Of a stretch of DNA of 64,000 nt, positions 44,588 to 62,814 are shown piece after piece. A model generated the notes under the pieces. It had not been told where the DNA came from. It saw nothing but the letters and a program-made list of their open reading frames with translations, and did no database searches. How positions within the stretch are numbered: position 1 is the first letter of the stretch; every line of letters begins with the position of its first letter. The stretch comes from an uncultured Verrucomicrobiae bacterium (GTDB lineage: Bacteria > Verrucomicrobiota > Verrucomicrobiia > Chthoniobacterales > JAATET01), in contig CAVRCI010000015.1 in NCBI GenBank assembly GCA_963719495.1, positions 114,948-178,947 on the forward strand, written 5' to 3'. Made by a program: the position numbers and the translations under genes.

Positions 44588-44956
44588 TTATTTCTTGCTC
44601 TTCTTGGCGGCTGCTTTTTTCGCAGGGGCCTTGGCGGCCTTCTTGGGGGCAGCCTTGGCTTTCGCGGCTGGAGCCTTCTTGGCGGCTGCCTTTGGAGCTG
44701 GAGCCTTCTTGGCTGCGGCTCTCTTAGGCGCGGCTTTCTTGGCTGGTGCCTTGGCCGCCGGTGCTTTCTTCGCCGGAGCGGCCTTTTTCGCTGGAGCCGC
44801 CTTGGCGGCTGGCTTCTTGGCGGCCGGCTTTGGAGTCACCGTTTTTTTGGCGGCTGGCTTCTTGGCTGGCGCGGCCTTGGCCACTGGCGCTTTCTTGGCC
44901 GGAGCCTTTTTAGCGGCTGGTTTCTTGGCTGCTGGTTTTTTCTTAGTTGCTGGCAT
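44588..44956 (-). CDS. Histone H1-like Lys/Ala/Pro-rich DNA-binding protein
   Basis: Almost entirely PAKK/AAKK repeats; AAAGGGGG RBS upstream; own terminator. Confidence 0.85.
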   Translation of the reverse strand: MPATKKKPAAKKPAAKKAPAKKAPVAKAAPAKKPAAKKTVTPKPAAKKPAAKAAPAKKAAPAKKAPAAKAPAKKAAPKRAAAKKAPAPKAAAKKAPAAKAKAAPKKAAKAPAKKAAAKKSKK

Positions 44957-48321: not shown

Positions 48322-48355
48322 CGGAGGGGCGAAGGCAACCTGCCGAGAGCAAAAG

Positions 48356-48408
48356 TGCTCGAGGAGGGACTTGAACCCACACTCCTTGCGGAACCAGATC
48401 CTAAGTCT
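48356..48408 (-). other. 3' half of tRNA-Leu(TAG): island attachment site (att duplication)
   Basis: Minus strand AGA-CTTAGGA-TCTGG-TTCCGCAAGGAG-T-GTGGG-TTCAAGT-CCCTC-CTCGAGC-A: anticodon loop, long variable arm, T arm, acceptor 3' strand; no D arm upstream; integrase 54 bp away. Confidence 0.85.
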
Positions 48409-48462: not shown

Positions 48463-49719
48463 ATGCCTTCTTCCCAAGCGCAGCCTCGCCGTCCCGCATT
48501 GATAGCGAACTTGCCGACGGGAGTGAACGTTTATCGTGATGGAGACGCTGGCGTTCGCGTCATGTTGGGAAAGAAGTTCACCGGCACAACTGTCGTGAAG
48601 CGGCGATTTCCGTCCCGAAAAGCGGCGAAGGAATTTATCTTTGGGCCGGAAGCGAGCAAATTGCGGGACGGGACCCCCGGGGTGGTCGATCTCAAACGCG
48701 ACCTCGGCTCGACGGGTATCGACGTGCCCAAAGGGATTTTTGCCGAAGCGATTGCCGCTTCGGATGAACTGAGAAAATCTCACGCCCCTGGGGGCCTGCT
48801 CGAGGCCGTGAGGTTCTATGTGAAGCACACCGCCACAGCCGGGACGTGGACCATTGCAGAGGCGTGGAATGCCTTGGAGCGGGATCTCCTGCGCAAAAAT
48901 CGCGACGAAAAATACCGCAACGGGCTCGGGTGGACATACGGTCGATTATCGGAAGATTTTCCAAAATCGCTGATCAGCGGCATCACGAAATCCGAAATTC
49001 TCGATTGGCTTGACGAAGAGAATTTCTCTTCCGCGACGCGAAACAACTACATCCGAGACCTCAAGATTCTGTTTAACTTCGCTGCGCGTGAGAAGAGGCT
49101 CGCTCTGAATCCACTCGCTGAAATCAGTCGCGAAGAGGTGCCCGGTGATGAAGTGAGCGTTCTTTCGATTCGCGATATCGCACGCGTTCTCGTGGCAGCG
49201 AGCCACATCCCGGAGATGAAAACGGCCACCGCGTTGAAGTTTTTCGCGGGCCTCAGGACATCAGAGGTCCAACGGCTGGACTGGTCCGAAGTCAAGTCGG
49301 ATACGATCATCGTCGCAGCTAAAAAGGCCAAAACCCGATCGAGGAGACCGGTCTCCATTTCCCGAAATTTGTCTCTGTGGTTGGCCGAAGATGCTCGACG
49401 AACCGAAGCCCCCGCCCCGACGGGCGCTGATTGGCGGCGGCACTTTGCGCTCTTGAAATGGCTGAGCGGAATCGACCCTTGGCCGAGAAACTGCCAACGG
49501 CACGGCTATGGATCTTACCATCTCGCTTTGCACAAAAACGAGAATCTAACGGCGATGGAGATGGGAAACACTCCAGATATTGTTGTGAGGCATTATCGGG
49601 CAGTGATCGATTCACCGAAAGACGTGGAGACTTTTTGGAATTTGAATCCCGGGAATATCGAAGACTTCGCTCAGCTCGACGAGGGATTTGAAGGAAGGCT
49701 TCAGCAATTTCTTCGGTAA
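48463..49719 (+). CDS. Tyrosine integrase
   Basis: FAGLRTSE (R), AKT (K), RNCQRHGYGSY, EMGNT, RHY (Y); SAM-like core-binding region ATRNNYIRDLKILFNFA. Confidence 0.92.
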   Translation: MPSSQAQPRRPALIANLPTGVNVYRDGDAGVRVMLGKKFTGTTVVKRRFPSRKAAKEFIFGPEASKLRDGTPGVVDLKRDLGSTGIDVPKGIFAEAIAASDELRKSHAPGGLLEAVRFYVKHTATAGTWTIAEAWNALERDLLRKNRDEKYRNGLGWTYGRLSEDFPKSLISGITKSEILDWLDEENFSSATRNNYIRDLKILFNFAAREKRLALNPLAEISREEVPGDEVSVLSIRDIARVLVAASHIPEMKTATALKFFAGLRTSEVQRLDWSEVKSDTIIVAAKKAKTRSRRPVSISRNLSLWLAEDARRTEAPAPTGADWRRHFALLKWLSGIDPWPRNCQRHGYGSYHLALHKNENLTAMEMGNTPDIVVRHYRAVIDSPKDVETFWNLNPGNIEDFAQLDEGFEGRLQQFLR

Positions 49720-50134: not shown

Positions 50135-50422
50135 GTGACTTCGAATTCCCAGCCCTCCGCGCCAACCATCCTTGTGGATGGTATCCGCCCGGCTGCTGTG
50201 GATAAAGCCCGCGCTGCGATCTACATCGGATGTCCCAAGCTTGTGGAACGCATGCTCTGGGCAGCCCGTCATTGCCCAAGAGATCCTTGGATCAAGATTG
50301 CGCACAACGCAGCGGGCACTCCGAAGGCCAAAACCCTAATCGATGCTCGAAGTCTCGAGCGCGCCTATCTCCGCATACTTTGCGGAGAGGAGCCACCTGT
50401 AATTGGAAAGGTAAAAAAATGA
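50135..50422 (+). CDS. Excisionase-like / small HTH DNA-binding protein
   Basis: PAAVDKARAAIYIG.PKLVERML...TLIDARSLERA; first gene of the ATGA-coupled operon. Confidence 0.55.
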   Translation: MTSNSQPSAPTILVDGIRPAAVDKARAAIYIGCPKLVERMLWAARHCPRDPWIKIAHNAAGTPKAKTLIDARSLERAYLRILCGEEPPVIGKVKK

Positions 50423-50796
50423 GTGAGAAAAATAACCCCGAATGTGACGAATGTGCGCCAGATAACTCTGAAGCTTCACCCCCAAGTAAAAATGCGAAGG
50501 ACGCGAAAGAAGCGACCGATGCAAGCGGGAAGAAAGAGAAAAGCGGGAAGACATTCGTCCGACTAGAAATCTCGAAAAGGGAGCTTGATAAGTTGGTTTC
50601 TGCCATGGAGAAGGCGATCCCGGCAGCCAAATTTGGAGGTTTGGCCATCCTCCGGAAGCGCGTTTATGACCTCCTCGAAATGGGAATCGAAGATCTCGCT
50701 TTGAACGGGTGGAAGGAAGATCGTCCGGCTCCCGAAACGATCCGGACTCCTTCTCAGCCCGCTGCTAGCGAAATCGATCAGGAGACTTCTTCATGA
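50419..50796 (+). CDS. Small hypothetical protein, RHH-like core
   Basis: ATGA overlaps at both ends; TFVRLEISKRELDKLV...RKRVYDLLEMGI. Confidence 0.55.
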   Translation: MSEKNNPECDECAPDNSEASPPSKNAKDAKEATDASGKKEKSGKTFVRLEISKRELDKLVSAMEKAIPAAKFGGLAILRKRVYDLLEMGIEDLALNGWKEDRPAPETIRTPSQPAASEIDQETSS

Positions 50797-52877
50797 GCAA
50801 ATCATTAAATCTGCATGAAATGCTCGCCCATGCTGCAAGCATTCTACATTTGCCTTACATACCTGGCCTGTTTGGCGGAGGGGCGAAAGTCCTTGTGGGC
50901 ATGTGGCTGCTCCTTTCCAGACGCCAGCCAGACTTTGCGAAAACCGTATCCGCGTGGCTAGTTGCCAATCCTCCTTCCGCTGATACCAAAGCGCCCGCGC
51001 TGGTTCTTGATCCTCTCGGCGCTCTATTCGGCAGCAGGCCGCTCCAAGATTGGGACAAATGGCGCCGGTCTCCGGTTCCGCTCCGAGAAGAAATCTATAG
51101 TCCTTTTTTCAGTAGGTTGATCGAGGCGCATCTCAAGATCGTGATCGAGACGTGCGTGGCAAACGATGTCGAGGCGGCACTCCCGCTAAAAGATCCGACT
51201 CTCGTCCATCGTCTGTGGCAGCAAGGCGTGCATCTTACGGCAATCTCGACTTGTCCAATTGGTAGCGACATCGATTCCGAAAAGGTTCGGGCTTTAGCAG
51301 TCGTATCGCTTAAAGGACCACAGCCATCGCTGCCGAAGCAGATCAATGGAAATTGGGCATCCTCGACAATTCACCGGAGGCAAGGTGGGCCCCTCGTTTT
51401 GCGGCGGCGGTATGAGCTTCTTGGTATCGACGATCCCTGCGAAGTTTCCGCAGCAGCCTATCGCTGGCTGGAGGGATTATCCAAGGGTGGCGGGGAAACC
51501 TCAGATCTTGTGCAGCGTCTCAAGGGCTATGGCAACGAAGATATCCGACTTGTCTTGAACGAAGGAGGGATCGGAGCAGGACATTTTGTGGATCTGGCTC
51601 GATCTGCGATCAATCAAGTGACCGCGCTAGGGAGTGTTCCACCAATTGGCGCCTCTGCTGCGGCTCTGATGTTTTGTGCCTTTGTCCTTCCGGAGAATAT
51701 CCGCGACGTAGAGTGCTCCGTGGCAGGAGACTGCATCATCGTCAAAAGCCCCTTGGTTGCATCCGCCGAATACCGAGAGTGGGATCCGACGTTGTTGCTC
51801 CCGCAGGCTGCTCCATTCCTCCGCGCCGTCCCAGCGGGAATCGGTCACTGCCTCACGAGACTTCAGAGTCTGCCCCCAGAACTCATTCGCCAAGAATTGA
51901 CGCTCTTTTTGCGGACAATCGATCCTGCGATGTCGATCGAGATGGTGCTCCGGTTTTTGACCAGTCAAGCATCTCTGTGTTTATCACTGCCTCGAACCTT
52001 TTCCGCGTTTGGTTTCGCCCCCGACGGCAAACCTTTAGCGTTTGGCGGTTGGCTAGCCTACGCGCGCCACGATCCGGAGTCCGCGACGCGCATGGCTACT
52101 CCATATTATGATGCAATCGGACTTGATCCGGTCCAGTTGACGGAAGCCTCAAGGGGATTAACGACGTGTGGGAGCGGAGCCGTGATGACAAACGAAGTAT
52201 CGTCTTTTCTTTTTTCAACTCTGACTGATCGACTTGCATGTGCCAATCGCGTCGAAAGTGGAGATTGTCGCCTGCGCTCTCTCGCCCGCTGGAATGGAAC
52301 CGTGGCTCTATACGCGCTGGCCCTTCAGGCACTATGCTTTCGCCGCCCCTATCCATTCGAGTTGCCCGAAGTGACAGGCGTTTCACACATTATTTCGCTC
52401 ACCCACGCAGAGCTGGAATATGAGAAAATTGGACCTCGTCGGATCTCGGTGTCGCCGATTGCCTCTGATCTCTCGCGCCTCATGTATCGTCGCTGGTCCG
52501 AGGTCTACGAGCACTTCTCGCCGGAACCATCGGCGCGCTGGCCTAGATTCTCTTGCGGAGCGTTTCTGTCGCTCCCGAACGAAAACATTCTGCCGAGAGC
52601 ATCGACCTACGCTTCTGCCCTTGAAATTACCCGGGCGCTCGCGCACGACGCCGAGTTGTGCGGGTATAAGCGACTTTTCCCCGGCTGTGCGAGGCACACC
52701 GCTGATTTCGCCCTGCGAATGGCGGGTTTTACAGAATCTCAAATTGACCTTCTCTCGGACCATTCCGCAGAGCGTAGCCGGGCGCGCCTTGGAGGAAATT
52801 CCCTGGAAGGTCCACCTTCGAGCGAGTTGCACGCTCGTGGAGAACTGGCCGTCGCCCGACACTTGGGAATTCGATGA
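50793..52877 (+). CDS. Large protein with degenerate C-terminal tyrosine-recombinase fold (no visible catalytic Tyr)
   Basis: LCFRRP, EK..PRRISV, CARHTADFALRMAGFTESQIDLLSDH; no Tyr between this His and the stop. Confidence 0.6.
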   Translation: MSKSLNLHEMLAHAASILHLPYIPGLFGGGAKVLVGMWLLLSRRQPDFAKTVSAWLVANPPSADTKAPALVLDPLGALFGSRPLQDWDKWRRSPVPLREEIYSPFFSRLIEAHLKIVIETCVANDVEAALPLKDPTLVHRLWQQGVHLTAISTCPIGSDIDSEKVRALAVVSLKGPQPSLPKQINGNWASSTIHRRQGGPLVLRRRYELLGIDDPCEVSAAAYRWLEGLSKGGGETSDLVQRLKGYGNEDIRLVLNEGGIGAGHFVDLARSAINQVTALGSVPPIGASAAALMFCAFVLPENIRDVECSVAGDCIIVKSPLVASAEYREWDPTLLLPQAAPFLRAVPAGIGHCLTRLQSLPPELIRQELTLFLRTIDPAMSIEMVLRFLTSQASLCLSLPRTFSAFGFAPDGKPLAFGGWLAYARHDPESATRMATPYYDAIGLDPVQLTEASRGLTTCGSGAVMTNEVSSFLFSTLTDRLACANRVESGDCRLRSLARWNGTVALYALALQALCFRRPYPFELPEVTGVSHIISLTHAELEYEKIGPRRISVSPIASDLSRLMYRRWSEVYEHFSPEPSARWPRFSCGAFLSLPNENILPRASTYASALEITRALAHDAELCGYKRLFPGCARHTADFALRMAGFTESQIDLLSDHSAERSRARLGGNSLEGPPSSELHARGELAVARHLGIR

Positions 52878-54607
52878 GGACAGCGCTCAATGCCGAGGAG
52901 CACAATGTTGGCTCCACGCCGAGGGATAGAGATTCGGGAAGACAAATTCTTGAGCGTTTAAGAATCGCTTCCAGCCAAGGCGATCAGCTCGCGAAGGCCA
53001 TTTTGCGAGCCCACGCCCTCTTCTTGGGAATCCTGGGGCTGACGGCACTGGCGAAGTCCAAAGGCGACCTCAAAACCCAGGCATGGCTGGAGCTTCACTC
53101 CCCTCAGGAACGCCACAAGACCGACGGATATGTCCTTCCGGTTCCAAACCTGTGGATCGATCTCGTGCCTGGTTGGCGCCGATCTCTGCGCTCGATGCTC
53201 AGCTCGGAGAAGGCGTGTCGCGAAATCCTGGAGCGATGGAAAATTGTCGAGAGTCGGCGAGTTCGAGATAGTTGGCGATGGTTCGCGAGATGTCTCGAAG
53301 CGACGCTGTTGGATGATACCCCGACGAGTCAGCTTCTCATCGGCATCGCGAATTTTCGCCGAGATGCGGCAGTTCCCGCCGTCGTCTCCCTGGATACTCC
53401 ATTTGTGAATCGAGGCGTGCGGACCGGACACGTGCGAGCTGCGTCAAACCCTCTGCGATCCGCCCTTCGGGCACGAAGGAAAGGCAGTGATGCAGAAGTC
53501 GTGATACCTACTTTTGAGGACCTCGCTCAGCTCGATGATCCGATCGCCAAGCTCGCATCGCTCTTGCTCGCGAATGAACTCTCGGCTCCCAGCGAGACAG
53601 ATCGCTCAGGCGGTCGGGCGGAGCGCTATTCGCGAGCCCAGGAGGAGGCGCTGCGCTCCTCGCAATCAGGAGATCTTTTGGAGATTTCGCCAGTGCTTCG
53701 AATCGCCTGGACTACAATCGGCACGCAATGGCCTGCGCTGCGTCCCCACTTTTCGAGGGAGGAATTGGCCCTGTTAGAGCCTGTCGTCGATCGGCCTCTC
53801 GAGGAAATCTTTATCAAGTCGCGGATGACCAACGCAGGGGCATTCAATCTAATCCCGCCCTCGCAAGCTTTGCAGCCTTACCACCGCTCTTTCGACCCTA
53901 CTGGGAGCCTCGCAGACCTCGTTCATTGGGCATTTTACCGTTTGATGTGTCGTTGTGGCTGCCGAGCGTCGGACCTGTTTTGCATCAACTCGACGCGCTT
54001 CAGTGGTGTGGGAACCCATCATATGTGCCTCACATTACCGCACACCAAAACGACAGGCCGTCGCGTCCTCCCAATCGGCGTCGCGATGCCTCCACGCGAG
54101 ATTGACCAGTTTCAGGCCCTGCTGGGCCGTTTCGAGGGCAATCCCGCCGATTGGTTTCCGCTCATCATGACAGGCGGAGCGGCGGAGCGTTGGTTGAAGG
54201 GTCCGGAACGGTGGGAGAATGACTTCGCGTATGCCGATTTCCGCCGGGCGATCGCTCCCGCTGGTATTGATTATCTTCCCACGCACACTCCTCGCCACGC
54301 GTTTGCAACTGCGGTCGGGCTCTTCGCCGCGGCCCAATTACTCGGTGATTTTGATCGTGATTTTTTCCGTATGTGGACTCAGGACCCTGCGGTCTTGGCA
54401 ATTGCCGAGTCTCATGTTCCGGATTTCCATAGGGCGCTCGACGATTCCATTCTGTTGGCGAATCAAATCATGGGGCACAAAACCCCCGCTCAGTTCATTG
54501 GCACATACTGCCATGCCTGGCCATTGATCTTGGGGGCTGCGGCGGAACGGCGCCTTCCAAATGTGATCCCATGGGCAAGCCTGCAAGCAGCTCAGGAAGC
54601 AGCCTGA
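52874..54607 (+). CDS. Tyrosine recombinase with long unknown N-terminal region
   Basis: CGCRASD (R), PHTKT..RRVLPI (K), HTPRHAFA (HxxR), IMGH, GTYCH (Y). Confidence 0.85.
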   Translation: MRTALNAEEHNVGSTPRDRDSGRQILERLRIASSQGDQLAKAILRAHALFLGILGLTALAKSKGDLKTQAWLELHSPQERHKTDGYVLPVPNLWIDLVPGWRRSLRSMLSSEKACREILERWKIVESRRVRDSWRWFARCLEATLLDDTPTSQLLIGIANFRRDAAVPAVVSLDTPFVNRGVRTGHVRAASNPLRSALRARRKGSDAEVVIPTFEDLAQLDDPIAKLASLLLANELSAPSETDRSGGRAERYSRAQEEALRSSQSGDLLEISPVLRIAWTTIGTQWPALRPHFSREELALLEPVVDRPLEEIFIKSRMTNAGAFNLIPPSQALQPYHRSFDPTGSLADLVHWAFYRLMCRCGCRASDLFCINSTRFSGVGTHHMCLTLPHTKTTGRRVLPIGVAMPPREIDQFQALLGRFEGNPADWFPLIMTGGAAERWLKGPERWENDFAYADFRRAIAPAGIDYLPTHTPRHAFATAVGLFAAAQLLGDFDRDFFRMWTQDPAVLAIAESHVPDFHRALDDSILLANQIMGHKTPAQFIGTYCHAWPLILGAAAERRLPNVIPWASLQAAQEAA

Positions 54608-54677: not shown

Positions 54678-54841
54678 CCAGCATGCGATCAGAAACTTTC
54701 TGAGCCTTCTCTGATTGCACCCTGAGGAGTCGCAGAACGGCTTCGGAAAAATTCTGATGAATCGCTGATCGGAGCCTGAACCATCTCAGATATGATTCAG
54801 AAAATTTCTGATCAGAGCCTGGCTTCCGCCTGAATGGCTGA
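54678..54841. repeat. Helically phased array: three 54-bp units each with a TCAG-N7-CTGA palindrome
   Basis: tcagaaactttctga 54689, tcggaaaaattctga 54743, tcagaaaatttctga 54797; CTGA at 54700/711/722, 54754/765/776, 54808/(819 ctgg)/830. Confidence 0.8.
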
Positions 54842-55014: not shown

Positions 55015-55780
55015 TCACTTCGCCAATACATTGAGGGTCTTTGTCACAAGTGGAGCGGGCGTAATCGCATCGCCTTCTCGGAGCAGGGCATTGGCATTCA
55101 AAATGACCACCGTAGTGTCCGCAAACTGGTTGGAGGTGACCTCGACGTTCCGGCCAAAATTGCGGCCCGGATCGACTTCGAGGAAGTGAGCTTTGTTCTT
55201 CACCACCGTAGCGACTAGGGATACTCCCTGCCGGAGAATGAGGGCATTTGAGGGAACAAGGTAGGTTCTATCGGTCGGGTCGAGTTGGAAGGATGCCGTC
55301 CCAGTGAGCCCGGCCGGGATGGCGAGGTCTTGACTTTGCAAAAGAAGTTCGGTGCGCATTGTGCCGGAGGCCGCATCAAAGAGTTCGCTGGAGTGGGCGA
55401 CTCCGACGAGAATTTCCGGGCCGGGAAATTCTTTGAAGCGCACGGTGGCACGACTGTCCGGCGTCAGCTTGAGGGCGAGGTCCGGGGTGGCGCTGATGAC
55501 GAATCGGGGGGTGTCGAGTCGGTTGAGTTGGTAAAGCCATCTATCAGCCGGGGCGGCGTCGCCACGCACGAGGTCACCTCGGTCGAAATTGCGAGCCGAG
55601 ATCACCGCGTCGAAGGGGGCGCGAACGGTGAGAAACCGTTGCTGCTCGACGAGACGGGCGAGTTCCGCTTCGGCCACCCGCACGGCGGCAGCGGCTTCCA
55701 CGGCGGTGGTCGCTCTTTGCTCGGATTCTTCCGCGGAGACGACTTTGGATTTAAGTAACTGAGAGGAACGGGCGGCTCGC
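55015..55780 (-). pseudogene. 5'-truncated RND efflux membrane-fusion (periplasmic adaptor) gene
   Basis: VRAPFDAVISARNFDRGDLV, SGTMRTE, PGLTG, VPSNAL, GRNFG; signal anchor and N-terminal lipoyl half missing; no RND partner. Confidence 0.75.
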
Positions 55781-55917: not shown

Positions 55918-57516
55918 GTGCCTGACTTGAGAATGGATCAGGACTCTTTACCTACGACCTACGGAGAATCCCACGAGATCGACCAGCTTGCTGTCCGAAA
56001 ATTTGAATCTTTGATGCCGCCTTCTTGGCTTCTCAGACGGCAGCACCCCGACTTCGCAGTCGATTATCAAGTCGAGATCGTTGAAGGCGAGCCGACCGGA
56101 TTCCGTTTCGCTGCTCAAATCAAAGGCGCGCGTCATCGGGGTCGGGTCAAACTGCAACGCAAGATCTCCACGAAAACTCTGCGTTATCTCCGTGACGCAG
56201 AGCGCCTTCCTGCTTTCATTTTCCTCATTGATGTAGATCGAGGAAGCGCGCACTGGGTCTTTGCACAACAGTATCTTCTTGAAAAAGTTCCGCTCGCCCG
56301 CCTCCGACAACGAACGGTGACCGTTCGATTCAGCGAAGAGAACGACCTATCGGACCTGCAAAAGTTCCGGCAGTTCCTGATTAGAGCTGGGAAATACGTG
56401 AACGATCTTTTTCCCGGCACGCCGCTCGCGGCGATTTGCAAACGGAAAGATGACCTTGAGCGACTCGATCCGCGGATGGGGGTGACAGTTTCCATGCTGG
56501 AAGGCCGCGAGCACATCGAGATCGAGCCTCGCGAGTCCTTGTCCATTGCGAGGATTATTGCGGGAGATAACACCCGACATGCCGTCGCGGTAGATTCGTT
56601 CGTGCGACATGGTGAACCTCTGGAAATTCCACCCCAGAACATTCAGGTTGACTCACCCCTGTTAGAGGCTCTCCTCGCCGAATGCCGCGGAGAAGCGATG
56701 CTTGTGCAACCGCTGAAACATCCCGGCACGGTAAGGCTTGAGTTTGACACGAGCCAAGAGGCGAGTTCTCTACTCCACATTGATGGGAGTTGGCGGATAG
56801 GAACGGAGTCGCTGACTTTCACAGGATCACTTCCCGGAACACCGCTGACGGTAGAATCGCGGATAGTGCCGACTGACTTCGTCTCCCGGAAAGAACTCTT
56901 TGTATCCCTCGGATTCAACTGGCAGCGCTGGGAAGGTCGCAGGCTCACGGCGCTGCCGTGGTTTGCGGAGATTCAGCGATTGGTAACTCAGATAGCGGAC
57001 GGTCTGCCCGTTCGGATTTCGTGGTTCCTGGATGGAAACGGTCTATGTCAGGCCGAACTAAATGACACACCTGATCTCGAAGCGGGTATTCAGACGCTCG
57101 CTTGGTTTGGTCGATGTCGGGAAATCTGTAGACGCTTTAGGATCGACGCAATTCTCCCTTCGATCAGTCAACTCACTTCAGAGGCTCTGAGAGAGACCGA
57201 CCGTATCGCGGAACTCATCGAAGGTCGCGAGCTGCAATTCACGATCCCCCCGCAGCCATTTACGATCAATTTTTCGACCAAGACTGACCTGCCGTCGCGC
57301 AAACCGGATTCACCAGAATCTCAAACGCGGTTCGATATCGTGTCTCCGAAAGTTTTCCAGTTTTTCGGGAAGGAAATCGTTCTGCCAAATTTGAAACAGT
57401 CTTTCGAGAACGTTGAATTGATCGATGAAAAGATCGAAGGCCGAAAGGTTAGTCTGTTCTGGCAGGCTACAGCCCGTTCAATTCTCATGTATCGGTGGCT
57501 GGATGCAGAAGATTGA
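55918..57516 (+). CDS. DUF4365-domain (PD-(D/E)XK nuclease-like) protein
   Basis: PDFAVDYQVEI..TGFRFAAQIKG; TLRYL...LPAFIFLID. Confidence 0.75.
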   Translation: MPDLRMDQDSLPTTYGESHEIDQLAVRKFESLMPPSWLLRRQHPDFAVDYQVEIVEGEPTGFRFAAQIKGARHRGRVKLQRKISTKTLRYLRDAERLPAFIFLIDVDRGSAHWVFAQQYLLEKVPLARLRQRTVTVRFSEENDLSDLQKFRQFLIRAGKYVNDLFPGTPLAAICKRKDDLERLDPRMGVTVSMLEGREHIEIEPRESLSIARIIAGDNTRHAVAVDSFVRHGEPLEIPPQNIQVDSPLLEALLAECRGEAMLVQPLKHPGTVRLEFDTSQEASSLLHIDGSWRIGTESLTFTGSLPGTPLTVESRIVPTDFVSRKELFVSLGFNWQRWEGRRLTALPWFAEIQRLVTQIADGLPVRISWFLDGNGLCQAELNDTPDLEAGIQTLAWFGRCREICRRFRIDAILPSISQLTSEALRETDRIAELIEGRELQFTIPPQPFTINFSTKTDLPSRKPDSPESQTRFDIVSPKVFQFFGKEIVLPNLKQSFENVELIDEKIEGRKVSLFWQATARSILMYRWLDAED

Positions 57517-57633
57517 GCGATTTTTCAGCGTCCGCTAGGGGCGTCTACGTAGTTGGCGTGTCTCCGCGGAGATCTATGGGCCGCTCTTCCGGATGTGGCG
57601 AATTCTCCAAATTTGATATATTCCAGTCATTGG

Positions 57634-60600
57634 ATGTCGTTGCTCCCACCTATCAAAAATACGTCAGGGGAAGGCTTTGCTGTTGAAGACCGAATCGTAG
57701 CGCTCCTCGCAGCTCACATGGTTGCAGGAGTTTCATGGCAGGGGGCCGGAAACGGTGCGATTCGTGCCATTCAGTGTCAAATGAGACAAGACGGTTGGCT
57801 GTTTGATGACGTGGTTCTCCGTCTGGAGCACAACGGAATTGAGCGGAAGTGTGCATGTTCGATCAAAAGCCACGCAGTTTTTGGCAAACGCGGTGCGCCG
57901 CGGGAATTTGCAACAGCGCTATGGGATCAATGGCGAACGGATTCGTCGTCAGGTTTTCAAAGGGATACCGACTCGATTACGCTGATCTCCGCCCAACACG
58001 AGCCGGATACCCGGGAGGCGTGGTTTGGTCTCACGGACGCGGCACGGTCGATGCCACCAGAGATGCTGGCGCGGCGATGTAGAGATGGTTTGGAGTCCTC
58101 CCCGATTCGACGAGCAGCGTTTGAAAGTCTCGTTCGGGCCTGCAAATCTGGAGATCCAGCGGACATCTCGATCGATACCGCGGAGATGTTGGAACGATTT
58201 CGCCTTGTGGAGCACGACTTTCAGCATGCTGAATCGCACAGCGCGACTCACGCTATTTTGCTTTGTCAGCAAGTCCTTGCGGACGACTCCCGAAATCGAG
58301 CGACCGAACTTTGGGAAGCACTCAGCAGTCATTCTGCCGCTGTCAGGAGGAAGGGGGGATCGATAACCTTGCCAAGCCTTTTGTCGGTTATCGCATCTCG
58401 ATTTCCGTTGAAACAACATCCGCACTTTGCGTCTGACTGGTCAGCGATCCTGGCCCAAAGCCGAAGGCGAATGGAGATCTTACCGGCCAAAATCGGTGGG
58501 TTCCATCATGTCGAACGCCTAGAGCTATTGGAACGAGTGACTCATACGGCGGACGAAGAAGGAGTCGTCGTAGTTCTGGGCGATTCCGGCAATGGAAAAA
58601 GTGTGCTCGCTCGGCAATGGGCTATCTCTGGGGATGCGGTCTGGCTTCGCGCGGGCGATCTCGCGACGAATGGGGGGCTGCGTGCATGTTTTGGGCTATC
58701 GCACGGCATCTCTGAACTCTTTTCGAATGTCGGCCAGCCGATTCGCCTCGTGCTCGATGGTCTCGACAAATGCTTCGATGAGACAGCCTTCGATGAGGCG
58801 GCGCTCGTTCTGCGATCCGCTCTCGCAGCCGACTGTCAAAATCGGTGGAAGGTAGTCCTGACTTGCTGCCCCGAAGATTGGGAACGCGTGTATCGTGAAC
58901 TCATCCGCCGAGAGGTCGTCCTAACTGGGGAGAAGGTGAATGTGGGACGTCTCACCGATGAGGAGCTACGGGACGTTTGTGGAAAGGTGCCCACGCTTCG
59001 TCTGCTCGGTCAGCGTCCCCACTTGCATCCGATTCTTCGGTGGCCCAAGGCGCTCGATCTCGTGGCCTCCTATTGGCAGGCAGGCACGGCGTCGCTGCCG
59101 TGGGCGTCGGAGTCCGATTTCGCTCGGTGGTTTTGGAGAAGCATCATCTGCAAAGATGAGGTGGCGGGCATCCGTGGTCGCGTGGTCCGCAAACTCGCGG
59201 TGCAGCTTGCGGATCGCATGGCGGCGACGGTGCCGCTTGATGACTTTTCGCCGGAAGAAAGCGAAGCTCTTTCGGGGCTTGCAAAGGAAGGGCACCTTGA
59301 GGTCGATCCGAATCGGTGCACTGTCCGGTTTGCACACGAGCTTGTGGCTGACTGGGCTCGGCAGCAAGAGCTGGTAACTCGGGGCGATTCTGCCGGGAAG
59401 TTTTTGGGATCCCGCCTGCTTTCGCCCTTCTGGCATCGAGCATTGCGTTTCCACGGTCTCGATCTTCTCGAGACAGACGCGACGGCCGATTCGTGGCAGC
59501 GACTCTACCGGGTGTTTTCGGGAGCAACGTCAGGCGATGAAATGGCCCAGAATCTCCTGCTCGAAGCACCAATCTTCGCCGCACGACAGCGGGCGGTTCT
59601 CGATCGCCTTTGGCCTGCCCTCGAAGTCGATGATGGGAAACTGCTCAAGCGATTTTTGAGGCAATTTTTGCAGGTTGCCACCATTCCCGACGCCGCAATT
59701 CTCGCGAACTTCCCGGACCGTGGTGCGGAATATCAATTGGAACTGGCAGCTCGCTATCGATTGCCTTGGTGGCCTTATTGGATCGGAGTGCTTTCATTTC
59801 TCGCCGCGCACGCGGAGCGAGTGACGACATTGGCGAGGGAGGAAGTCGCCGACGTATGTTTGCTTTGGCTGCCGCTCCATCAAATGATGGACATTGGAAT
59901 GGATCACGCCGGGGCGCTCGCAATTGTCTCGGCTCGTCAGGTTTATCGGAGTGGCGAGCGGTGGCATGCGGCGCACCATCGGGTGAGTGCCGAGGAGAAG
60001 GCTTGCCAAGCGCTTCTCGCGGCGGCTCCGCAGTGTCCTGATGAAGTCACCGACCTTGCTTTGAAGTTTTGCGGACGACGTTTTCCTGATCCCGAGGAGG
60101 GTTTGCCCGGCGAGGAACACTACGCCCCGTCTCGATTTATCCCCGACCTCGGACCAGTGGTGCCTTGGCCGGATGGGCCACAGCGCCCGTGCGCTAGGAT
60201 TTTCCGCAACGCGTTCATGGATTGCAATCGATCCGCGCCGTTCCTTGAAGCGCTGCCGGAAGTCGCCGCCGAAGTGATGTTCGCAGTGTTGCTGAACCGC
60301 CCACGGGCCAATCGGAACCCCCACGATCAGCACTACGACATCGATGAGCATGGGTTCACGCGGAGCGGATTGCTGGACGATTCGTGCTTCTGGATCAGCG
60401 GACCATTCCTCACGTTTCTCCGATCGAGTCCATCGGTCGCTCTCCCGGCGATTGTGCGACTGGTTAATTTTGCGACGGACCGAGGTGCGGAGATCGGCGA
60501 AGAGATGCGTCCTTATCAAAGCGTTTCTGTTGTCGTTGAAGGGGAGACTCACGAATGGCGGGGACATCAATTTTCGTATGTCTGGCACCAAGGGCACGTT

Positions 60601-62814
60601 TTTGCACCCCGATCAGTTGGTTGCGCGTTGCTCTCACTCGAAAAATGGTTCTATCTGCTGATGGACGGGGGCCATTCGCTAGATGAGCACATTGCGTTCA
60701 TTCTTCGAGAGAGCCGATCCATCGCGCTCGCCGGAGTCTTGATTTGTGTCGGAAAACGCAAGCCTGAGTTGTTCTTGGGGCCGTTGAGACCGCTCATCGA
60801 GGCAATCGATTTCTACATGATTGAAGAATCCAATCATCGGCGCGGGGAGGACAGTTTTTCAGTCTCGGCCTTCGACGAACGATCACCAGGAGTCATCGAA
60901 GCTTGGCGTGAGTGGGTGCAAATGCCACACCGCAAGGAGAGCATTGGCCAGCTCGCACTACAGAAATCCTTCAGCAATCCAGAATGGCGGGAAATGATTG
61001 CGGAGTGCCGCGAGAAATGGGCGCGGAGGCTGGATGCTGCGACGGACGAGAAACCCGCTCCACAATGGTTGGCGCGCATTGCATCGCAATTCGATCCCGC
61101 AAATTGGCACGCCGAGCAGGATGAAGACCGCGTGCTCATTATCTACGACCCGCCAGAAGGTTTGCCGCAGCCGACTCCTCAGGAATTGGATCGGCTAAAG
61201 CGATCAGAGCTTCTGACTTTGCTTCCGTTTCGATGTTATCAAGTTCTGAACGGCGAGATCGAATGTCCCGAGGAGCAAATGGTGGAGTGGTGGTCGCAAT
61301 TGGAGGCCGTGAGGGCGTTGCCTCAGCGGGATGACGAAGAAAGTTTCCGAGACGCGGAGGATGCGCTGTCTGGCATCGTTGCAGTCGCGGTCGTGAAACA
61401 TCGTGCATGGCTTGCCGATGATCTCTCGCGGGAAAAAGAGGCGTATTCCGTCTTAACATCTATCGGTGCCAGCCCGCCGCCCAGGTCTCCCTGGTTCTCG
61501 GAAGACGACACCATGGAATTCAAATGGGATAATTTCGCTGCGTGGGCGGTGACGACTTTGTGGTGTGAGAGCCCCGATGATCCCGTTTTGCTTCAAGCGG
61601 TCGGCGCTTTATCTCTCTGGGATCGTAGTTGCGTTGTCTCGCGGGTGATGTCCATTGCCGCGGAGCACCGCGCGATTCTTAGCGAGCGCTTCAATCAGTT
61701 GTTTGCGCACGCGATTGGCTACGCAGGCGCTCGCCATCGGGCGCGGATGGAGAAGCACGAATCTACGAAGACGTTCGACCGGGACGCTTGGGTCGTTTCG
61801 CATTTGGAAAAATTTCTTTCCGGCGCAACCGACGATCTCCCGTCTAGTTGGCAAGAGCTACCAGGTCCGGCGGGAGATCTCGGTCCTACGATCGACGAAT
61901 CGGGGAGTCATCTTGATATAGCCCAACTTCTGGCCGCTTCGGAGTGGGCGTCAGATCTATCGCTTGCTCGGGATGAGGCAGAGCGCCTTCAGTGGTCAGG
62001 CATCCAGCGACAGGTCCTGTCGTGCGCCCTGGCGCGCATCGAGCATGTGATCGGTGCGAGAACCACTCCCGACCCGTATGACAGTCAGCGAGAGTATTGG
62101 CCCTATAGCGACGAAAAGCAGTTGTTGGAACGGATCGCTGTCCTCGTGGCTCGGATGAAACTTGGCGAAGATCACCAGATGTTTTGGCAGCCGATCTTAG
62201 CCTTGGGGCGAGACGGCTGTCATTGGATAGACGCCTTCAGTAGCCACTGGCTGATCGAAGCCGCCGGACATGATGAACCGAAACCTGCCTTCCTTGATCA
62301 GTGGCTCGCAATGCTGACCTTCGCCGAACGCTCTCCAGCTTGGAAAGCCAAAGGAGTATTCATCTCATCTGGACGTGATCTTTGGGATCGTCTGCTCGGA
62401 CTCACACCGTTCTCAACGGATTTCTGGATCGAGCCGCTCGCGTTTGCGGTAGAGGCCGTCTGGCCGTTCCACCAACGTTGGCTTCGTTCTCATTCGAATG
62501 CAGACCACGATGTCCGAACCTTCATCAGATTCATCAGAAATCCCGCCGCACGCCGCTTGCGAATTGAAGGACTCGTGCTGCTCCATGAAGTGATCCCTCT
62601 GGAGGAGCGGTATTTTTGGAACGAGGAGGACATCAGAGATTCGTTTGCCGGATTCCTTCAAATCTTGCAGGAAGAGCAGTGGGCTGAGCTGGCAGCAGAT
62701 TCTACCGCGCTGGACGCATTCATGGCATTCGGGTCTAAACTCGCTTCGCTTCAGCATCCTTTGGGGCGCGAAGTGCTCAGCAAGGCCGGAAATCGTCTTG
62801 GCAAATCGACCTAA
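57634..62814 (+). CDS. Nuclease-STAND NTPase, Avs/AVAST-like
   Basis: N-term TSGEGFAVED...GWLFDDVV...CSIKS; Walker A GDSGNGKS; Walker B LVLDGLD; RFAHEL wHTH end; over 1000 aa helical C-terminus; start re-picked at MSLLPP. Confidence 0.75.
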   Translation: MSLLPPIKNTSGEGFAVEDRIVALLAAHMVAGVSWQGAGNGAIRAIQCQMRQDGWLFDDVVLRLEHNGIERKCACSIKSHAVFGKRGAPREFATALWDQWRTDSSSGFQRDTDSITLISAQHEPDTREAWFGLTDAARSMPPEMLARRCRDGLESSPIRRAAFESLVRACKSGDPADISIDTAEMLERFRLVEHDFQHAESHSATHAILLCQQVLADDSRNRATELWEALSSHSAAVRRKGGSITLPSLLSVIASRFPLKQHPHFASDWSAILAQSRRRMEILPAKIGGFHHVERLELLERVTHTADEEGVVVVLGDSGNGKSVLARQWAISGDAVWLRAGDLATNGGLRACFGLSHGISELFSNVGQPIRLVLDGLDKCFDETAFDEAALVLRSALAADCQNRWKVVLTCCPEDWERVYRELIRREVVLTGEKVNVGRLTDEELRDVCGKVPTLRLLGQRPHLHPILRWPKALDLVASYWQAGTASLPWASESDFARWFWRSIICKDEVAGIRGRVVRKLAVQLADRMAATVPLDDFSPEESEALSGLAKEGHLEVDPNRCTVRFAHELVADWARQQELVTRGDSAGKFLGSRLLSPFWHRALRFHGLDLLETDATADSWQRLYRVFSGATSGDEMAQNLLLEAPIFAARQRAVLDRLWPALEVDDGKLLKRFLRQFLQVATIPDAAILANFPDRGAEYQLELAARYRLPWWPYWIGVLSFLAAHAERVTTLAREEVADVCLLWLPLHQMMDIGMDHAGALAIVSARQVYRSGERWHAAHHRVSAEEKACQALLAAAPQCPDEVTDLALKFCGRRFPDPEEGLPGEEHYAPSRFIPDLGPVVPWPDGPQRPCARIFRNAFMDCNRSAPFLEALPEVAAEVMFAVLLNRPRANRNPHDQHYDIDEHGFTRSGLLDDSCFWISGPFLTFLRSSPSVALPAIVRLVNFATDRGAEIGEEMRPYQSVSVVVEGETHEWRGHQFSYVWHQGHVFAPRSVGCALLSLEKWFYLLMDGGHSLDEHIAFILRESRSIALAGVLICVGKRKPELFLGPLRPLIEAIDFYMIEESNHRRGEDSFSVSAFDERSPGVIEAWREWVQMPHRKESIGQLALQKSFSNPEWREMIAECREKWARRLDAATDEKPAPQWLARIASQFDPANWHAEQDEDRVLIIYDPPEGLPQPTPQELDRLKRSELLTLLPFRCYQVLNGEIECPEEQMVEWWSQLEAVRALPQRDDEESFRDAEDALSGIVAVAVVKHRAWLADDLSREKEAYSVLTSIGASPPPRSPWFSEDDTMEFKWDNFAAWAVTTLWCESPDDPVLLQAVGALSLWDRSCVVSRVMSIAAEHRAILSERFNQLFAHAIGYAGARHRARMEKHESTKTFDRDAWVVSHLEKFLSGATDDLPSSWQELPGPAGDLGPTIDESGSHLDIAQLLAASEWASDLSLARDEAERLQWSGIQRQVLSCALARIEHVIGARTTPDPYDSQREYWPYSDEKQLLERIAVLVARMKLGEDHQMFWQPILALGRDGCHWIDAFSSHWLIEAAGHDEPKPAFLDQWLAMLTFAERSPAWKAKGVFISSGRDLWDRLLGLTPFSTDFWIEPLAFAVEAVWPFHQRWLRSHSNADHDVRTFIRFIRNPAARRLRIEGLVLLHEVIPLEERYFWNEEDIRDSFAGFLQILQEEQWAELAADSTALDAFMAFGSKLASLQHPLGREVLSKAGNRLGKST

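Follow-up and report, generated by a model that had tools for sequence, protein, structure and literature searches.

A conserved pair of large tyrosine recombinase-like proteins with three predicted catalytic folds in Chthoniobacterales

The 64-kb stretch of DNA analyzed here (the window), which comes from an uncultured Verrucomicrobiae bacterium of the order Chthoniobacterales, contains two adjacent genes, termed A and B, that constitute a real, conserved and unannotated module, a variant of the multi-recombinase mobile elements. Under every explanation weighed below, B would contribute one complete active site and A would be a partner with complementary partial sites, an arrangement that appears suited to the cutting of one strand. 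As a tentative first choice, which we hold at somewhat less than even chances, we propose that A and B form a two-protein strand-transfer machine with three recombinase folds, similar to those of the SE and GInt elements, that would circularize or move its own element.

Organization of the operon and its island

The A and B genes are the last two members of a four-gene operon encoding proteins of 95, 125, 694 (A) and 577 aa (B), in which a sequence check located an ATGA overlap at each of the three junctions (50419, 50793, and 52874); the coordinates and sizes given by the original prediction were found to be exact on rechecking. The operon starts ~400 bp 3' of an island integrase, which itself adjoins a tRNA-Leu att site. 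The features of this region are as follows.

48356–48408, minus strand: att site, 53 bp identical to the 3' portion of tRNA-Leu(TAG)
48463–49719, plus strand: canonical island integrase P0005, 418 aa (PHROGs phrog_1, E 8.6e-20)
50135–50422, plus strand: 95-aa protein with an uncertain GTG start, likely excisionase-like as judged from its size and position
50419–50796, plus strand: 125-aa protein, possibly a ribbon-helix-helix-like DNA binder (a motif impression, not a tool hit)
50793–52877, plus strand: gene A, 694 aa, an N-terminal region (residues 1–257) without a fold call followed by two predicted tandem recombinase catalytic folds
52874–54607, plus strand: gene B, 577 aa, an N-terminal domain without assignment, a core-binding domain (residues ~220–310) and a catalytic domain with R364-K392-H471-R474-H535-Y545

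The intact tRNA-Leu(TAG) gene is located on another contig of the source genome (G000, C3:188198-188279), and ARAGORN found zero tRNA genes in the window. The earlier view that a canonical integrase accounts for integration into a tRNA gene thus stands with regard to the integrase and the att site, both of which are present; the tRNA-Leu itself is represented in the window by its 3' 53 bp only. Three paralogs of the island integrase are encoded in the source genome, where they adjoin tRNAs or island edges. The G+C content is 0.50–0.60 from 48 kb of the window onward vs. ~0.63 genome-wide, and the island would span at least 41 kb if the ends of contigs C15 and C3 join, as we presume. The same element, 97.7% identical, is found in a genome from another species of the genus (G435); the similarity begins at 48353, and run X1 shows loose ends at positions 48353 and 48408. 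Since the G435 copy starts at the att site and has a different flank, the element moves as one unit, integrase included. Between the two copies, the integrase gene and the two small genes do not differ, and the codon changes number 40 synonymous and 12 non-synonymous for A, and 59 synonymous and 30 non-synonymous for B. These counts, together with the identity of the other genes, indicate that A and B are probably under purifying selection, and that the A-B stretch presumably underwent an allele swap between the window and G435 copies. The Rfam search gave no match.

Several other genes were noted in the window. The region 55918–62814 is likely to represent defense cargo; its products are a 532-aa DUF4365 protein and a STAND NTPase (1753 aa) with weak similarity to Avs4 (E 4e-7); the NTPase gene is interrupted in G435 by a ~1.4-kb insertion with a 408-aa reading frame. 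The minus strand contains a 5'-truncated RND periplasmic adaptor gene (55015–55701), for which no close parent was found in the assembly, and a gene for a 122-aa Lys/Ala/Pro-rich histone-like protein (44588–44956).

Catalytic residues and predicted folds

B is predicted to belong to the tyrosine recombinase superfamily, with a core-binding domain and a catalytic fold that carries the conserved R-K-HxxR-H/W-Y residues. The profile search with B against 1.84 billion representatives gave 19 matches, mostly of 510–600 aa. Among 21 aligned homologs, R364, K392, R474, and Y545 are kept in all proteins, H471 in 20 and H535 in 18, which bears out the full R-K-HxxR-H-Y set originally read in the window protein. 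The structure model of B is confident (pLDDT 86); the top Foldseek rows are all tyrosine recombinases, though none has E < 0.001, and VIA matched the model to XerA (Z 10.4, rmsd 13.5, 235 aligned) and XerH (Z 8.7, rmsd 5.8, 259 aligned), covering B residues ~220–563. Residues 1–190 are conserved and have no domain assignment. B has no Pfam family and no plasmid match, NCBIfam returned for A and B only an unrelated row (E 0.06), and PHROGs yielded an integrase match to B at E 0.024. Word-based homolog searches identified two relatives of B and, for A, only a near-identical copy.

The A protein is predicted to contain the tyrosine recombinase catalytic fold in two copies, which correspond to the following parts of the gene.

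51564–52127, plus strand: fold 1 of A, approximately residues 258–445; Arg/His positions not conserved, Tyr423 (52059–52061) invariant
52170–52862, plus strand: fold 2 of A, approximately residues 460–690; R518, K545, R634, and H657 kept, no Tyr

The A model is weak overall (pLDDT 56.5, 8-row alignment), with most of residues 1–258 below 50 and with values of mostly 70–90 across residues 261–400 and parts of the C-terminal half. VIA with this model returned two separate ranges, 259–443 and 460–662, each matching recombinase catalytic domains. The first range matches Brujita Int (Z 7.8, rmsd 3.4, 148 aligned), XerA (Z 7.2) and XerH (Z 6.2), values that, being below 8, are weak taken singly, but many members of one superfamily match this same range; the second matches an archaeal Xer (Z 9.5, rmsd 3.7, 168 aligned). 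The internal duplication is not detected by sequence-profile comparison, and the double fold is thus a prediction from the structure model. The recombinase fold originally suggested for both large proteins was recovered by Foldseek and VIA for B, and by VIA for A, where the model is of low confidence. Their long N-terminal regions, originally described as unrecognized, are indeed without assignment in residues 1–190 of B and 1–257 of A, whereas residues 258–445 of A constitute a second predicted catalytic fold.

Homologs of A were gathered via the loci of B and aligned as 11 proteins in 12 rows, one gene being split. In fold 2, R518, R634, and H657 are present in 11 of the 11 rows covering them, and K545 in nine of 11 (read from alignment A10); none of the 11 has a His at the HxxR position or a Tyr 8–11 residues after H657. 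The missing C-terminal Tyr, for which a survey of homologs had been proposed, is thus a family trait (11/11). In fold 1, Y423 is invariant (11/11) and no Arg or His is conserved. The full catalytic residue set is therefore absent from either single fold, with the Tyr in fold 1 and Arg/Lys/Arg/His in fold 2. The description of A as a protein that keeps the R, K, RH, and H-like positions and lacks the Tyr is valid for fold 2, the HxxR His excepted, but not for the whole of A; the protein is probably not simply Tyr-less, and both of its predicted catalytic folds appear incomplete. Similarly, the proposed division into one active and one architectural subunit agrees with the complete site of B and the incomplete sites of A, but it overlooked the second A fold with its invariant Tyr423. 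The VIA alignment of XerH stops at A model residue 417, which equals XerH 340, and the catalytic Tyr of XerH is residue 344 (PMC5241119, available text); extended to this Tyr, the alignment would place the nucleophile of fold 1 at about residue 421, two residues from Y423, as an extrapolated position rather than an aligned pair. Y423 could be structural. A has no Pfam family and almost no sequence neighbors, and a near-identical protein carries a Chthoniobacterales label at NCBI. The plasmid match to the A C-terminus (E 0.1) was discarded, being antisense to an unrelated gene, and the predicted complex of B with A(258–680) scored 0.00, which is not evidence either way.

The SPbeta proteins MrpR and SroF, DNA-binding regulators or scaffolds without catalytic activity, are both among the fold matches of A (Z 5.7–5.9). 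Together with the absence of a full site from either A fold, these matches are consistent with a similarly dead A that acts as regulator or scaffold beside B, which would itself be a resolvase or invertase working alone on the excised island. We consider this explanation improbable: the invariance of R518, R634, H657, and Y423 at ~20% overall identity is hard to square with a dead protein, and small Xer-like recombinases are already present in four of 11 contexts.

Distribution and genomic context of the A-B loci

The source genome encodes two further pairs, on contigs C7 (679 + 599 aa) and C2 (724 + 574 aa), with ~20% identity to the window pair, and the A and B profiles each find exactly the same three paired loci in this genome. 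Other A-B loci were identified in G435, G446, G517, G460, and G463, and as L029, L030, and L031–L033. Co-occurrence of the two genes, originally put forward as a check, is complete: wherever upstream DNA is available (12 of 12 loci), A is the gene immediately before B, a count that excludes L032 (no upstream DNA) and includes G435, though nearly identical to the window, as well as G517, where A is split, and L033, where A is cut by a contig end. The (A/G)TGA overlap is found at eight of 10 intact A/B junctions. The family is rare: among 400 other genomes sampled from the whole phylum, none was found to contain B, and among 400 of the order B was found in seven (five clear and two weak, G406 and G716), with three candidates per genome scored in these two surveys; the G460 family yielded B in one of 43 genomes. 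The P0002, A1, and A8 patterns had no match in genomes, metagenomes, and viral contigs. A wider A family may exist, since A is nearest in the Atlas to unnamed Pseudomonadota clusters of 678–892 aa (0.98; one auto-named integrase), with recognition just under threshold. The literature covered, which mostly leaves aside subscription papers, held no description of the A-B pair or of tandem catalytic domains.

Small genes, one or two per locus, lie before A in the window and at C2, C7, G446, G460, G463, and G517. The 95-aa protein has a 36% identical homolog (E 6e-9) located 3' of the integrase of an island on contig C5; its slot is occupied by an HTH_17 gene in G460, and an HTH_17 gene is found 6.5 kb upstream in G517. 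The 125-aa protein has no Pfam match, and the proteins in its slot are connected by marginal phmmer links only (E 0.02–0.05).

With the generic recombinase profile, full-length integrases of two independent types were detected upstream at four loci, namely the window, G435, C2, and G446. The flanks examined at five of nine loci with at least 7.6 kb upstream, namely C7 (17.7 kb upstream), G517 (20 kb), G460, L029, and L031 (~8 kb each), contain no full-length canonical integrase, which could lie beyond them; a weak 280-aa recombinase-profile match is found downstream in G460, and in L029 a tRNA-Ser is located 2.4 kb before A with no integrase between. A role other than integration had been proposed for A and B, and its basis, a separate integrase, is weakened by the presence of an adjacent integrase at only four of nine loci. 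No ends of the A-B unit itself were found, the visible borders being 47- and 53-bp tRNA repeats with their own integrases; the island of C2 is bounded by the 47-bp tRNA-Met repeat 85 kb away. For the C7 copy, located in patchy sequence 3' of tRNA-Pro, the search for an empty site was without result.

Additional recurrent genes were observed around these loci. Four of the 11 A-B contexts, as well as the C3 arm, contain recombinases of ~200 aa that consist of the catalytic domain only (C7:198618-204642, C2, C3 tail; L019, L025), often with Fic-like and AAA ATPase genes. The island arm on C3 and the island on C8 each have a copy of one module that comprises a 442-aa AAA ATPase gene and its neighbors (L004:1793-4970, L006:718-5761). 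The tRNA-Met islands share a conserved gene of 636–645 aa without a Pfam match, which separates the integrase from the A-B operon and is encoded on the opposite strand (L002:10678-12612; L025:13527-15437).

Downstream of B in the window, we identified one further feature.

54687–54841, no strand assigned: array of CTGA/TCAG words with ~11-bp phasing, a candidate protein-binding site (oriT-, att- or iteron-like)

There are eight TCAGA/TCTGA words in 301 bp, a count reached by none of 2000 shuffles, and the phasing score of 8 is reached by two of 1500 genome windows; this is the only such array in the source genome. The array is absent behind nine other B genes, and the regions downstream of B have no common DNA motif, apart from a stretch of 211 bp that the related C2 and G446 loci share at 67%. 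In the window, no same-strand ORF of at least 80 aa starts within 250 nt after B.

The tRNA-Ser island of contig C5 combines a related integrase and the 95-aa homolog with a 332-aa gene and, on the opposite strand, a TrwC relaxase, and the latter two genes occupy the slot of A-B in the window island. This C5 island (L003, G000 C5:13466-18975) is an apparent mobilizable element. A single relaxase query revealed no relative of the C5 TrwC near any A-B locus. The common slot and the separate occurrence of TrwC would fit A and B as the mobilization module of an integrative mobilizable element, with B as a tyrosine recombinase-type relaxase, A as its partner, the array as oriT, and integration left to the canonical integrase. 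The available text on the MOB_M systems (SGI1 MpsA/MpsB, TcpM, MobK), compared here by description, offers a similar combination of a recombinase-derived nicking enzyme and a non-catalytic partner in an integrase-bearing island: the recombinase-like relaxase MpsA of SGI1 requires MpsB from the same bicistronic mRNA (PMC6414798), and 96% of MOB_M relaxases are found near an integrase (bioRxiv 10.64898/2026.01.13.699239). However, MpsB consists of a core-binding domain only (PMC6414798), as opposed to the two predicted catalytic folds of A. Moreover, an integrase is nearby at four of nine A-B loci, the window included, and not at the other five, the array does not recur behind the nine other B genes, and three folds seem to be above the needs of a relaxase. 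This explanation appears doubtful, but the array, the slot in common with TrwC and the precedent of MpsA/MpsB keep it close behind the SE/GInt-like one.

Satellite-like islands usually hold replication genes at the slot taken here by A-B, and A and B could accordingly start replication of the excised island or resolve it to hairpin-ended linear DNA in a protelomerase-like manner. Against the ResT/TelK clusters of the Atlas, B scores 0.94 and A scores 0.89, and the array could be iterons; however, protelomerases rank below Xer proteins and integrases for both models, self-BLAST detected no long perfect palindrome in the 450 bp 3' of B, and the contigs of four DNA runs from one study, a weak test, contain no circle or fold-back joint and no joint inside the operon. 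We regard this possibility as very improbable, and it fits less well, as does the dead regulator or scaffold, than the SE/GInt-like machine and the relaxase.

Relation to SE, GInt and other recombinase systems

In the available text, SE elements (intA-tfp-intB-srap) and GInt elements (ginABCD) both pair large recombinases with a degenerate one, and each has three recombinase-fold proteins, encoded by translationally coupled genes, all of which are needed for circle formation (PMC10214605, PMC5385486); the pairing concept thus has established precedents. According to the same sources, SE elements are known from Gammaproteobacteria only, form a strand-biased circle, leave no empty site and have ends with a 6-bp footprint (PMC10214605), and GInt elements have termini with imperfect repeats of 10–17 nt and the operon at the 5' end of the element, with one case known from the verrucomicrobium Opitutus terrae (PMC5385486). 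The A-B locus is similar to SE in its coupled operon, in that the gene for a degenerate recombinase fold comes immediately ahead of one for a large complete recombinase, and in protein sizes (538–626 aa for Tfp and 617–679 aa for IntB among the SE proteins compared). Like fold 1 of A, Tfp keeps the Tyr (6/6 copies) and has lost the first Arg and His. The differences are the two predicted folds of A, the lack of Srap and of an IntA directly before A, and tRNA repeats at the window island instead of the 6-bp footprint ends. The likeness to GInt is in three recombinase folds within one operon, encoded by two large genes at the A-B loci and by three genes for separate proteins plus ginD in GInt; moreover, in five GinC homologs a single domain holds R, K, HxxR, W, and Y.

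For profile comparison, SE and GInt genes were taken from listed accessions and their plasmid relatives, giving profiles of 4–6 sequences. A matched none of the eight SE/GInt protein profiles (best probability 1.6%; fold 1 vs. GinA 5.6%), and hhalign of A and B against Tfp and IntB gave probabilities below 1%, vs. 79–97% for controls, with shallow profiles that also missed the relation between A fold 2 and the B catalytic domain. B matches IntA and GinA via the generic catalytic domain (E ~1e-5 to 1e-4; GinA 1e-4 to 2e-5) and GinB weakly, and it has no match to IntB or GinC. Neither the Srap profile nor the GinB/C/D profiles had a match in 11 A-B contexts, and no GinD-like gene was found there. 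Thus, the A-B locus resembles the SE/GInt cores in logic and is not filed as a member of either, given the lack of Srap and GinD and of detectable orthology. As a separate observation, the profiles of the SE and GInt proteins themselves (L035–L045) pair Tfp with GinB (92%) and IntB with GinC (79%), vs. 0.1% for Tfp with GinC; SE and GInt may have one common gene order, against the published pairing.

The sizes and layout were originally held to be unlike RIT and Tn554, in agreement with our comparison. RIT elements have three recombinases of 315–410 aa, all with the catalytic Tyr (PMC10214605, Table 1), vs. two large proteins of 694 and 577 aa with a Tyr-less A fold 2; as judged by gene layout, the window differs from Tn554 (tnpA-tnpB-tnpC) in having no small gene at the TnpC position after B.

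The SE/GInt-like strand-transfer machine is favored by the gene coupling, by an integrase often being absent nearby, and by the match of three folds in two proteins to the three recombinase-fold proteins of SE/GInt. It is opposed by the missing ends of the A-B unit, by the absence of a Srap-, GinD- or TnpC-like gene after B, by the failure of profiles to connect A or B with Tfp, IntB, or GinC, and also by the poor A model, the fold 1 Z-scores below 8, a Y423 that is possibly structural and integrases possibly located beyond the flanks. In such a machine, the A-B element would ride inside the tRNA-integrated island of the window, A and B would assemble on the element ends, and B would cut one strand through Tyr545. 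A may only bind and bend the DNA, or it may provide a second, composite site, in which Tyr423 of fold 1 would enter the Arg-Lys-Arg-His pocket of fold 2. This asymmetry would give a single-strand (copy-out) exchange, with the small genes presumably acting as directionality or regulatory factors.

In Flp trans cleavage and in the heterodimeric kinetoplastid topoisomerase IB, the catalytic Tyr and the Arg-Lys-Arg-His pocket are likewise provided by different folds; in A, both halves are predicted to reside in tandem folds of one chain. It is conceivable, though on balance unlikely, that A consists of two mutually complementing catalytic folds (Tyr423; Arg518/Lys545/Arg634/His657) and forms with B a hard-wired asymmetric two-site recombinase, the core of an undescribed class of Verrucomicrobiota mobile elements.

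The combination of an active and a degenerate recombinase is already known from SE and GInt, and the distinctive property of the A-B family is the predicted double-fold protein with a Tyr apart from the pocket. The mechanism of one-strand exchange by several recombinase-fold proteins in SE/GInt-type elements is described as unsolved in the available text of PMC10214605. In the A-B family, two proteins contain three predicted folds, among which the residues are divided in a clean and conserved manner, and hence four point mutants could tell which fold cuts. The A-B pair also marks mobile DNA that is missed entirely by Pfam and NCBIfam, with three divergent copies in one genome. We propose that A and B together likely move or copy out the surrounding DNA in Chthoniobacterales.
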